DNA from: Eledone cirrhosa
Lineage: Eukaryota
DNA length: 64,000 bases
NCBI GenBank assembly: GCA_964016885.1
Contig: OZ024740.1
Span: 31,062,001 to 31,126,000, forward strand
Reading direction: 5' to 3'
The notes under the pieces are model-generated. The model saw only the letters and a program-made list of their open reading frames with translations, was not told where the DNA came from and made no database searches. The position numbers were made by a program, and so were the translations under genes. Of this stretch, positions 49,601 through 55,600 are shown piece by piece (the stretch's first letter is position 1; every line of letters starts with the position of its first letter).

Positions 49601-52600
49601 TATTTGTAACAAATGGTTCATACATAAAATTCTACTGGAAAATTTAAATTTAAATGAAAACCCTTTAAAATGTTTTTGTTTTTTTTATGGAACCAGAAGC
49701 AGTTCTGTGTGGGTTGCTTTTGAAAAGGTTAAAAAAAGGAAATACCATTCTTTTTGAGTTGTGAAATAAATGAAACTGGGAACAAAGTTTAAACCACAAA
49801 AGCATCAATGAAGGGTAGTTCGGAAAAATCTTCAAAGAAAATAGATAAAACTAAATGGTGTTTTACATTTAACTAAACTTAGAAGTCACTTCTAAATGAA
49901 ATAAAATTAAGTACCCTCCAACTTCTATTTCATGTATTGAGTACTTTATTTTGTGGTTTCCTTCCATTCTTTAGTGAAATACCATGCTACAACTACATAT
50001 CTATATATATGTGTGTGTATGAGAGGGAGGGGGGGGGGCAATGCACTTGCTTTGTGGAATACCAAATAAAAGTCTGATAAAAAAAATATTAAAAAAAAAA
50101 TCGAAGCAAAAAAAAGTATGTACTCACTAAAATTGATATTCAATTATAAAAACAGACTTTTCTACATCATTAAAATATATTTTCAGTATTTTGTCAAAAT
50201 CCTGTATAAGAATTTAACAACTATACCAAAAACATCAAAGGAAAATGAAAACAGTGTCACAATTAATAAACTTACTTTCAATTTTTCATGATTATCTCTG
50301 TCATTTTCTTCTGAAGCAACTTTGCCATCTGCATGCGTCTCAGTCCGTAAATCCCTGCTATCTCTTATATCCCGTGTATCTCTGCTTTCAACACGTATAT
50401 CTCTAGTTTCTCTTATATCTCGAGAGTCTAAAATAACCTCTCTTGGTTCCCGGATATCTCTCGTCTCACCACGTGTATCACAAGTTTCCCAAACATCTTG
50501 TGTGTCTCCTCGGGTTTCTCTAGATTCACGTATGTCTTCAGGTTCAACACGCACCACATCCCTCTGATCACGAATCTCACGGGACTCAGGACGCACATCT
50601 CTAGCATCACGAATATCCCTTGTTTCTCCACGCCCAACATCCCTTGGCTCTCGAATATCTCGAGTTTCTCCACGCATGTCTCTTGGTTCTCGAATGTCAC
50701 GTGGTTCACCACGCACCAATTCCCTGGGTTCACGAATCTCAGTACGCCCAATGTCTCGTGGTTCAGCACGTACATCCCTTTGCTCACGAATGTCTCGTGG
50801 TTCAGTACGTACATCTCTCTGTTCTCGAATGTCTCGTGGCTCAGTACGCACATCCCTTGGCTCGCGAATGTCACGTGGCTCAACACGCACATCCCTTGGC
50901 TCGCGAATGTCTCGTGGTTCAACACGCACATCCCTTGGCTCGCGAATGTCTCGTGGTTCGGCACGCACATCTCTTTGTTCGCGGATGTCTCGTGGTTCAG
51001 CACGCACATCCCTTTGCTCGCGAATGTCTCGTGGTTCAGCACGCACATCCCTTTGCTCACGAATGTCTCGTGGTTCAGCACGCACATCCCTTTGCTCGCG
51101 AATGTCTCGTGGTTCAGCACGCACATCCCTTGGCTCACGAATGTCTCGTGATTCAGCACGCACATCTCTTGGCTCGCGAATGTCTCGTGACTCAGGACGC
51201 ACATCTCTTGGTTCACGGATGTCCCGTGGTTCGGCTCGCACATCTCTTGGCTCGCGGATGTCTCTTGGCTCAGTGCGCACATCTCTCTGTTCACGAATGT
51301 CTCGTGGCTCTGTTCGAACATCTCTTGGTTCACGCACGTCTCGTGGTTCTGTTCGAACATCCCGTGGCTCACGGACATCACGTGGCTCTGTACGAACATC
51401 CCTTGGCTCAACACGTACATCTCGTGGCTCACGCACATCACGTGGCTCAGTACGTACATCCCTTGCTTCACGGACATCTCGTGGCTCAGGACGGACATCT
51501 CGTGGCTCAGGACGGACATCCCTTGGTTCTCGGGCGTCTCGTGGCTCAGGACGCACATCCCTTGGTTCTCGGGCGTCTCGTGGCTCGGGGCGCACATCCC
51601 TTGGTTCTCGAGCGTCTCGAGGTTCAGGACGCACATCCCTTGGTTCTCGGGCATCCCGTGGCTCAGGACGCACATCCCTTGGTTCTCGGGCATCCCGTGG
51701 TTCAGTCCGCACATCCCTTGGCTCACGAATGTCACGCAGTTCAGTACGCATATCTCTTGGCTCACGGATGTCACGCGGTTCAGTACGGGCATCCCTTGGC
51801 TCACGAATGTCTCGTGGTTCAGCACGTACATCTCTTGGTTCACGAATGTCTCGTGTTTCAGGACGAACATCTCTTGGTTCACGAATGTCTCGTGTTTCAG
51901 GACGTACATCTCTTGGTTCACGAATGTCTCGGGGTTCAACGCGCACATCCCTCTGATCACGAATGTCATGTGGTTCCCCGCGTATGTCACGTGCTTCTCC
52001 ACGTACATCTCTTGGCTCACGGATGTCACGTGTTTCACCACGCACATCTCGCTGATCTCTAATATCACGTACTTCACTACGTACATCCCTTTGCTCGCGA
52101 ATGTCACGTGCTTCACCAAGCACACCTCTTTGCTCCCGAATATCACGAGGTTCATTACGAACATCTCTAATGTCTCTTGGCTCAGTACGTACGTCTCTCT
52201 GCTCTCTATTGTCATGAGGCTCAGTGCGTGCATCTCTCTGCTCTCTCATTTCTCTCGGCTCTACCCGTGCATCTCTCTGCTCCCTAATATCTCTCGGCTC
52301 TCCTCGTGCATCTCTCTGTTCCCTAATGTCTCTAGGCTCGCCTCTTGCATCTCTCTGTTCCCTCATGTCTCTAGGTTCTACCCGAGCATCTCTCTGTTCC
52401 CTCATGTCTCTAGGTTCTGCACGCACATCTCTTAGTTTCTGAATGTTCATTGTTTCCCCACGAGAATCCCGTATATCTCTAGATTCTCCACGGACATCTC
52501 TAATATCACGAGAATCCCCACGGATATCCCTAATGTCTCGTGGTTCAAGACGGATGTCTCTGGATCCCATGCGTGGATCTCTGGGAGTTTCAATACGACA

Positions 52601-55600
52601 CTCTCTACCATCCAGTCGAATATCTCTGGCTGGTTCATGGCGAGTATCTCTACCATCAAGACGAATGTTTGCCTCAAGGCGATTATCTCTCATATCATGA
52701 CAGATATCTCTATTTGAATCTATTCTTGAATCTCGGGGTTCAAGGCGAATCCCTCTATTTGGTTCAAGACGTATGTCTCTTGACTCATGACGTAAATTCC
52801 TGGTTGGTTCAAGTCGTGGCTCATGGCGTATATCACGAGTAGTGTCAAGATGAGTGTCTCTAGATTCGTGACGCATGTCCCTGGATGGATCGAGACAAGG
52901 ATCTCGATTTTCATGTCTTATAGCTCTTGGTGGTTCCATACCATGACGCAAATCGCGGGGTGATTCGAGAAGAGGATCTCTAGGTTCATGCCTAATGTCC
53001 CTAGAGGATTGAAGACGACAGTCTCTTGCTTCCATACGAATATCTCTAGATACACCACGCATTGGTTCATGGCGGATGTCTCTAGGCTCAATATGAATAT
53101 CACGGGTTTCGCCACCCATATCCCTATTTTCACGCATGTCTCTTCCTTCAAAGCGAATTTCTCTAGGTTTTCCACGCACATCACGTATGTGATCTAGATT
53201 AATGTCTCTAGGTTCACCACGCATTTCGCGGCGAATATCTCTAGGTTCAGTGCGTGTTTCCCTATTTTCATGGCGAATATCCCTTGGTTCACCACGAATT
53301 TCTCGTGGATCATGGCGAATGTCTCTTGGTTCACCACGTGTTTCCCGTGGATCATGGCGAACATCTCTGGTTTCCCCACGTGTTTCACGTGGATCTCTGT
53401 GCTCTCTTGCTTCACGTAAGTTTCCTCCTTCAGTGCGTACTTCCCTTGCTTCACGGTGTTTTTCCCGTTTTTCTTCATTTCTAGAGGGAAAAAAAAAAAT
53501 GAATAAATTTATTATATTACAAGATAAAAATAATTATAAACATACAAACACACTAACCTGCAAAATCAATTAACAGAACTAATAATTCCTACTTATGATG
53601 ACCAATCTCTATTACTAGCACCAAAGATTAAATTAAATAAATGAACACCTTTATGATTTCTAAATTACATGTTTGATCACATCCAATAACTGAATTAATA
53701 TAAGACTACGCATGGTGATTATTTTTCACACATACATATCTCTATAACTCTCCCATTTTCACTTTAACCCTTTAGCATTCACATTAAATTGTCAAATGTC
53801 ATGTTCATCTATTCGCATTATTTTCACTTAATTATACTCAAGAGGGTTATCAATTTTATTTGTTTGTAATTACTTTAATTTTCTATGTGCAGACTTGAAA
53901 TTTTGTCAGATGTTTAAATAACTATAATTTACAATTATATATTTTTACCGGATTTTTTTTTGTTAAATTTGACTTTTATGGGCAGGTGAAATTAATTAAC
54001 AGGTGTAAAAGTAATAACTTTATGGATAAACACAAATTTAAACTTTATCTGCCTTATCTGTTAGATTTGTTGCAAAAAAATCCAATAATGACCTAGATGC
54101 TGATTTCCATCAATTCTAGCAGTTTTCCGAACAGGTGAATTAATTAAAAATGCAGGTGTAATCAGTACACGGTTTTAGTCTTTCTCTACATTCCAGGCAA
54201 ATATTTTCATTGAAAAAAAATGTATAAAACCTTTTCACCGGTCAAAATAATATTGGCAATGTACTCTGTAAATGTACGGTGTAAAATTACGTAACAAAGT
54301 TCCCAATATATAAGTTTATACACACTTTTAAATTTTTCTGACAATATTTCAATTAATGGTCGTACTTTGTACAGTGGGTCGTAATTTGATTCATTTCTAC
54401 CAATACTGGTTTAATTTAATGAATCGTTTTTGCCATAATACTAGATATATAAGGGTCACCAAACCTTATATCAGTACTCCAATAATTCCACAGTCGTGGA
54501 AATTGTTTAATACCAAACATAATATTTATGGTAAAAAACGCTTTCATTTCGGCAGAATCTGTCGGACGCCATAACAGATCGGGTTTTCCGATATTAGAAA
54601 TTTGTTGTTGTGCATAGCGATTTGCCACAACTTCGAAGAAAGATTGTGGTAAAAATAAAAAAAAATAATCCAGTGCTTTAGCATCAGGTGGTAATGTGTG
54701 TTGTGGTCCAATATTTTCAGTAAAATCCGAAACATGTATTGATGTTTCTTTCAACCACGTTGCTGTTTTTTCAATGGTGTCAGTCAAATCTTCTCTTTCA
54801 CTTTCAAAGTAACTATCATCATTATCAGATATATCAGAAATAAATATATCTGATTCGTTTGAAGATAAATCACTGATATTATCTTGTTTCTTTTTGATCT
54901 CAAATGTCGTCAGACGTAAAACCTTCAAATTCGTTGTCGCTACTTTCGGAAGCCATGTTACACTTTCAACGTTAAAAACACGTGCTATCGCAAGTTCTTT
55001 AACTATACTAAGAGTTAATTTTCGCGCGTAAGGGCTTTATCTCACAGTAATCTCGAATTGACGAGATTTCGATGATGTCAATGTTTATTTTTAGAAGGAA
55101 ATCTCCGTGTGGTATTAAATGTCGGTTTTTGTCGGTTTGAATAAATGAAAGGGGACATAATCTTGTCGGTTTTTGTCGCTTTGAATGCTAAAGGGTTAAT
55201 GTATTGAGTAGGGTTTTTTTATTTGCCACGATCATTCATAAGGAAATTTCTCTTTTATTACACAATAACATCCAAATTATAATTCTGCCTACCAAGTAAA
55301 AATTACACTGCACCTTCTTGGCACAACTAAAATATTATATTCATGTGTGTGTGTGGAAGGCAGGGAAATTTGAAAATTTAATTAGAAGCATTTGCCGTAT
55401 TTTTAACTACAGAAAATCACAGCATATAAGCCACTTGAATGGAAAAAGGGAGTATCATCATAATATACAATCCCACACTCTACCAAGTGCATTTTTTCAT
55501 GGCATCAACACTAAGGAAGTTGACATGTCTTTAGTATAACTGAAGAGTCTTCCTAACCCTTTCGTTGGCATGTTTTCTACAACTGAATGCCCTTCCTATC

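Follow-up and report, generated by a model that had tools for sequence, protein, structure and literature searches.

PRRC2A, PRRC2B, PRRC2C and their single invertebrate ortholog share a BAT2_N domain, a DYSEKL-type motif, a charged helix, RG motifs and a Gln/Pro-rich tail in the same order. One study describes the human proteins as more than 90% disordered, as entering stress granules, and as using a helix of the coiled-coil region to promote translation together with eIF3 (10.64898/2026.02.24.707808); another links PRRC2 to leaky scanning (PMC10123092). PRRC2 proteins set leaky scanning and translation linked to upstream open reading frames and belong to the stress-granule core, and no function is assigned to most of their disordered sequence. 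Here we analyze the PRRC2 gene of the octopod Eledone cirrhosa, which has the same order of elements, in a window of 64,000 nucleotides (nt) of genomic DNA (contig OZ024740.1, positions 31,062,001 to 31,126,000, forward strand). One of its exons encodes a 1,068-amino-acid (aa) array of Arg, Asp and Glu repeats. The array is real, expressed and conserved in octopods, and comparison with orthologs indicates that it is an old charged linker expanded in place.

Among the sequences that the array most resembles are the Arg-rich mixed-charge domains (R-MCDs) of U1-70K, NELF-E, CPSF6, FIP1L1 and the fungal protein SPA-5, defined as longer than 60 aa, with a charged fraction of 0.7 and a positive to negative ratio of 1:0.7 to 1:1.3 (10.1101/771592). 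Like these, the array has Arg over Lys (292 against 7), balanced charge within that ratio (net charge per residue -0.007), alternating sign and predicted disorder. Unlike them, it has a charged fraction of 0.57, Arg at every third or fourth residue, 9% Pro, a length of about 1,000 aa and a translation factor as host.

Results

The array is encoded on the minus strand by one exon (53480-50276) with an AG acceptor and a GTAAGT donor, and its 1,068 codons contain no stop. The exon has phase 2 at its start and phase 0 at its end; if its two neighbors are joined directly, a stop follows after 33 codons, inside the next exon. The array accounts for 28.8% of an estimated 3,710-aa protein and follows a conserved 13-residue motif that is divided between exons 58077-57898 and 56502-56455. 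It lies between BAT2_N and the first helix, which is intact. An earlier note, made from the sequence alone, had described a single open exon of this length and phase directly after the conserved motif, amounting to about 30% of the visible protein, and this description holds. The features of the locus that concern the array are:

1248..63865, minus strand: PRRC2 gene body within the window, from a tblastn exon map with Octopus sinensis PRRC2C
57898..58077, minus strand: PRRC2 exon, phase 2-2, with the first half of the conserved motif at its end (..GEIDY), from spliced joints in runs X8, X1 and X3 and translation
56455..56502, minus strand: 48-nt exon, phase 2-2, with an 11-residue segment, directly upstream of the array exon
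50276..53480, minus strand: array exon, phase 2-0, 3,205 nt, 1,068-aa Arg/Asp/Glu repeat, from splice joints and translation
52451..53480, minus strand: array residues 1-343, older and irregular, degenerate units of 6-7 residues with His, Leu and Cys
50765..52417, minus strand: regular core of the array, residues 355-905, units of 39 nt/13 aa with consensus E-P-R-D-I-R-E-[PQ]-R-D-V-R-x
50276..50764, minus strand: degenerate C-terminal flank of the array, residues 906-1068, alignable with Octopus
45886..45987, minus strand: exon that follows, phase 0, carrying the RESW motif, which in other molluscs ends the charged linker
43950..44177, minus strand: exon with the family-wide charged helix (13-residue signature) of the coiled-coil region, from a motif-based family alignment

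Both exon junctions that the earlier note had named for checking, 56455>53480 and 50276>45987, are present in contigs of sequencing run X8, from the same organism, and the four listed X8 pieces show no difference over 2,537 of the 3,205 exon bases. Both joints recur in runs X1 and X3, which come from a relative and another study and have an array with substitutions and a 33-nt insertion. We took X8, X1 and X3 as transcript-derived solely from their spliced contigs, as the library type of these runs is not on record. Among the joints listed (15 of 896 in a first listing and 15 of 54 in a second), from contigs that lose rare forms, none skips the exon, and none in X8 or the unspliced run X6 is internal to it. 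The relative's runs X2 and X4 matched barely at 95% likeness, which makes this second joint listing uninformative on skipping in the relative. Contig depth in X6 was 7-15 over the array and 7-11 in unique intron bins; it is not a copy number and was not used.

The exon had also been called unskippable. This stands for the exon as a whole, whose removal breaks the frame, and not for parts of it: in-frame partial shortening appears possible on paper. The array contains ten phase-0 GTACGT hexamers, identical to the donor used at 43216, each of which would join the next exon in frame. In addition, a second O. sinensis PRRC2C model (X10) has a 718-aa array with an internal gap of 264 aa, and models X10 and X2 (P0007 and P0008) differ by +13 and -264 aa inside the array. 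The X10 gap, which runs from a Val to a Glu codon, is compatible with GT..AG splicing, but it may stem from short-read misalignment in the repeat.

The assignment of the host gene to PRRC2 is borne out. Two BAT2_N exons lie about 0.6-1.0 kb past the window end (flanking locus L003), where PF07001 matches at positions 612-800 of the minus strand (E 5.3e-23, 82.9 bits against a cut-off of 25). This is the single BAT2_N match in the whole genome, indicating one PRRC2 gene. The O. sinensis PRRC2C maps exon by exon across the window with 94.7% identity outside the array, and the central RG motifs are present in open reading frames 26233-27117 and 23521-24159, mapped to the ortholog. The conserved motif precedes the charged helix of the coiled-coil region, as in the PRRC2/BAT2 family.

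The array consists of 27.3% Arg, 14.5% Asp, 14.1% Glu, 9.3% Pro and 0.7% Lys, with no Lys between residues 349 and 1052, 12% Ile plus Val, two aromatic residues and one RS dipeptide. Net charge stays within +2/-4 in every 100-aa block, and charged residues alternate in sign at 95% (kappa 0.015, against 0.128 when shuffled). Tandem Repeats Finder reports repeats of 39 nt from 50750 to 52432, and of 21 and 42 nt close to the 5' end. Successive Arg residues are spaced by three in 187 and by four in 78 of 291 intervals; the unit is four acid-x-Arg triplets plus one spare residue, and not RD dipeptides. The motif R-D-[IVMLA]-R occurs 113 times here and at most twice per protein in other orthologs. 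No Pfam family matches the array at E 0.1, and an ESM Atlas search with it remained at chance level (best score 0.79, recognition 711). In a low-confidence AlphaFold model of 14 units from a single sequence, no secondary structure was predicted (predicted local distance difference test, pLDDT, 51; predicted template modeling score 0.12).

Three known classes of repeat were considered and rejected. An RD dipeptide repeat of the NELF-E type has Arg at a spacing of two, not three or four. A single alpha-helix (ER-K helix) forms one long helix from charged sequence that is free of Pro; the array has 9.3% Pro and no helix in the model. As to a non-coding minisatellite, the array is spliced and its units are not near-identical, with a synonymous difference per site (pS) of 0.42 between adjacent units.

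The first 340 array residues match the PRRC2C of O. bimaculoides at 88% (1 of 656 candidates). Arrays occur in O. bimaculoides (968 aa), O. vulgaris (982 aa) and O. sinensis (969 aa). The Octopus records XP_052823701.1, XP_029642287.1 and CAI9716776.1 are deposited as PRRC2C or hypothetical protein, so the array was not inflated in assembly. It is 89% identical to that of O. sinensis over aligned residues. The ends are 88-93% identical between species (92-93% for the first 300 aa against O. sinensis), and the center gains and loses units, with different dominant ones. Old edges with a changing center are expected of a tandem array. Array length remains within 10% across the four octopods despite differing central unit types, that of E. 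cirrhosa being about 100 aa longer than those of Octopus and having other homogenized central units.

We surveyed 119 other full-length proteins from the best 120 of 996 matches, and in 116 of them the anchor motif was recognized. The survey takes in arthropods, nemerteans, a brachiopod and, among molluscs, bivalves and gastropods; neither these best 120 nor ten proteins looked up by name included a named squid, cuttlefish or Nautilus protein. The charged patch at the array site measures 736-1,000 aa in Octopus. In 39 of 42 invertebrate proteins it is 12-133 aa long, and in all 77 vertebrate proteins 19-155 aa. Between motif and helix, the three Octopus proteins with a full array have 1,076-1,090 aa and the short model 826 aa, compared with 107-253 aa in the 106 other orthologs where this distance was measurable (10 did not match the helix pattern). 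A further 144 representatives were mostly N-terminal fragments, of which 23 matched the anchor motif. These data agree with the proposal of a lineage-specific expansion, as the 116 other orthologs compared have 12-155 charged residues, and an equally long array is not general among the invertebrate PRRC2 proteins surveyed.

In other molluscs, the charged linker from FSDD to RE[ASG]W spans 39-114 aa. It is RD-rich in Gigantopelta, at 114 aa, as is the 135-aa linker of the nemertean Lineus, with 18 RD. Because other animals hold a short charged linker at the same site, the array is best described as an old ancestral linker expanded in place, about twentyfold in octopods, and not, as had been claimed, as an inserted domain. 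The 2-0 phase was probably inherited from a short ancestral exon, and phase asymmetry would thus be no evidence of selection for the array. A search for homologs of such a short exon yielded two matches among 19 candidates, both fragments, and a metagenome scan with the first 340 array residues gave 179 pattern matches, none confirmed. An origin from a dispersed repeat was rejected: other genomic matches are 28-40% identical, and the four of five loci examined (all but C1000) are unrelated minisatellites. We found no publication describing the array in octopus or cephalopod PRRC2 in a search that covered few subscription papers; one octopus paper has the gene in a table (PMC6522055). The array is thus already in public Octopus annotation, but apparently unremarked as a feature.

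The codons of the units differ, as had been noted: 40 of the 42 13-codon units have distinct DNA, and of 253 differences 162 fall on the third base of a codon. Since these 42 units were chosen with a pattern that fixes some charged positions, a conservation count from them is biased. Tiled by period alone, three runs gave adjacent-unit ratios of nonsynonymous (pN) to synonymous differences of 0.20, 0.16 and 0.09, in line with the inter-unit test that had been suggested, with pN of 0-0.046 at charged and 0.10-0.16 at spacer positions. The pS of 0.42 compares with at most 0.063 in three minisatellite controls from the same genome; a fourth control (L016) gave no usable unit pairs. CpG observed/expected is 1.10 in the array and 0.38 in the rest of the window.

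The comparison between species is the stronger test of selection. Relative to O. sinensis, 7 of 255 Arg columns and 75 of 410 uncharged columns are changed (P 1.6e-10), a count that includes a center where the aligner is free to pick the best-matching unit; in the unambiguously aligned ends the numbers are 0 of 122 and 34 of 230. Arg and Lys are exchanged in none of the 255 columns of the array, against 6 of 166 outside it (P 0.004; 0.007 with AGA/AGG codons only). These results support purifying selection on the charged positions, with variable spacers, as the earlier note had suggested.

The minisatellites L015 (G000:C5:76881001-76891000), L016, L017 and L018 consist of near-identical units that are open in several frames for up to about 2,080 codons. 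They caution that an open repeat of this genome, even a long one, is not necessarily coding.

It had been stated that vertebrate PRRC2 proteins lack such an array. This is correct for the array site, and the PRRC2C of the lungfish Protopterus annectens (XP_043942694.1) has a similar tract elsewhere. Of 145 long proteins compared, it has the longest Arg-rich mixed-charge stretch apart from those of Octopus. In this one annotated record, unchecked by reads, residues 1028-1326 (299 aa) are 26% Arg, with a charged fraction of 0.60 and a net charge per residue of -0.007. They contain 47 RD dipeptides, against 2-4 in the same 300 aa of 19 of 19 other vertebrate PRRC2C proteins matching the flanking motif. 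The tract lies before the RG motifs and not in the N-terminal linker, and so differs in site from that of octopods; Arg is mostly at every third residue, with no Pro-based 13-mer. The two tracts share four 8-mers and 13 6-mers, compared with a mean of 0.15 in full shuffles and 8.3 in shuffles that keep the charge pattern; when only uncharged residues were shuffled, at least 13 shared 6-mers arose in 117 of 1,000 trials. The charge pattern accounts for the shared 8-mers, which are thus no argument for a common origin of the tracts; it is the charge pattern that converged. Shorter R/D/E repeats of other patterns occur in the PRRC2 orthologs of Macrobrachium, Elysia and Darwinula. In the same kind of literature search, with few subscription papers, we found no publication on PRRC2C in lungfish or on PRRC2 mixed-charge tracts.

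Discussion

We favor, with evenly balanced confidence, a reading in which the expanded octopod linker would be a disordered, multivalent Arg/acid sticker that strengthens the hold of PRRC2 in RNA granules, chiefly because Lys is avoided. The array would have grown by tandem duplication of 18-, 21- and 39-nt units, leaving old ends and a younger center. Its chain would be disordered, and about 290 Arg with no blocks of like charge could make Arg-carboxylate contacts between chains. We speculate that the chain is extended and polyproline-II-like, with Arg, acid and Pro/Ile/Val on three separate faces. The place of action is predicted to be stress granules and not speckles, since the vertebrate proteins act in translation in the cytoplasm and move into stress granules. 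Condensation of mixed-charge domains is reported to need Arg, not Lys, and to depend on length (10.1101/771592). The lungfish tract at its separate site suggests selection for the pattern in the PRRC2 family, or at least that the family generates it easily. Tentatively, PRRC2 may have gained at least twice, at different sites in octopods and lungfish, a net-neutral module of acid-x-Arg triplets that needs Arg and whose length would tune granule cohesion. In that case the tract of octopods would be an extreme R/D/E polyampholyte made by nature, and could give access to translational control specific to cephalopods.

Several observations weigh on the other side. An alternating R/D peptide reportedly did not phase separate (PMC9324279), and the array is extremely well mixed, with only two aromatic residues. 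None of its 1,008 61-aa windows reaches the R-MCD charged fraction of 0.7 (maximum 0.62), and most animals do without the array. Inter-unit pN/pS is weak evidence by itself, as the units are not independent and the minisatellite controls reach 0.13-0.25 in some frames, the value of 0.13 in one of six, with few sites segregating. In the ends alone, free of the alignment choice in the center, the shortage of Arg-Lys swaps falls short of significance (0 of 51 AGA/AGG codons, P 0.08). A conserved alternating polyampholyte of about 1,000 residues offers a natural experiment on whether well-mixed Arg/acid chains are sticky or repulsive, a question to which the two papers give differing answers.

It is possible, though we hold it with some doubt, that charge balance was selected and not stickiness. 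A self-neutralizing, Pro-punctuated chain would stay expanded, separate the BAT2 N-terminus from the helix and keep a disordered protein of 3,700 aa soluble. The narrow net charge per block, the near-complete sign alternation, the Pro content, the low pLDDT and the R/D peptide that showed no liquid-liquid phase separation (PMC9324279) all fit such a spacer. A spacer should accept Lys for Arg, however, and the substitution occurs in none of the 255 columns; the seven Lys lie outside residues 349 to 1052.

Tolerated bloat is an unlikely explanation. Slippage-prone R/D codon runs might grow in large-genome lineages, with selection merely removing stops, frameshifts and charge imbalance. R/D/E repeats have arisen in PRRC2 proteins at various unrelated positions (lungfish, Lineus, Macrobrachium, Elysia, Darwinula), and the E. 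cirrhosa genome is rich in long open minisatellites. Central units turn over, and 264 aa are missing from one O. sinensis model. Against this, even the irregular ends are 88-93% identical between species with all 122 Arg columns unchanged, CpG is not depleted and array length is stable in four species.

We consider it quite improbable that the array directs cephalopod PRRC2, or the mRNA encoding it, into nuclear speckles in the manner of the R-MCDs of U1-70K, NELF-E and CPSF6, for a nuclear RNA-processing role or mRNA-capture feedback. Alternating R/D patterns target speckles (10.1101/771592), PRRC2B is reported to have nuclear functions, and mRNAs of R-MCD proteins are captured in speckles (PMC12629991). 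The array has a single RS dipeptide, though, and the family is chiefly cytoplasmic. Its Arg codons are not AG-biased (CGT is commonest; AGA plus AGG make up 36%, against 46% in other exons; purine share 0.61), which leaves the AG-rich-codon capture described in PMC12629991 without support. Finally, an assembly artefact or a non-coding minisatellite misread as an exon, conceivable as the array is not spanned by any single contig and X5, X6 and X8 may belong to the assembly's own study, is refuted in substance by the array in three independent Octopus records, besides the splicing seen in another organism and study and the distinct units that differ mostly at third codon positions, and has a negligible probability.

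Other features of the gene

In mammalian PRRC2C the coiled-coil region has a long second E/R/K helix. Past the first helix, neither the octopod nor other molluscan orthologs show an evident counterpart; the same eIF3 binding mode as in human PRRC2 is thus not assured. In a marsupial PRRC2C (P0080), this second helix is a long E/R/K repeat. Just after the conserved helix of the E. cirrhosa gene lies a 102-nt in-frame exon (43216-43317, minus strand), spliced in in X8, X1 and X3. It is present in the O. sinensis isoform X2 and absent from O. bimaculoides X3 and O. vulgaris proteins, indicating an alternative cassette. The intron upstream of the array exon contains a DDE_Tnp_1_7 (PF13843) transposase fragment (54416-55036, minus strand) that is high-copy in DNA runs. 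Broken frames in other PRRC2 introns (19521-21961, plus strand; 28743-29333, minus strand) are endonuclease/reverse-transcriptase-like in appearance, and we take them to be LINE-like.

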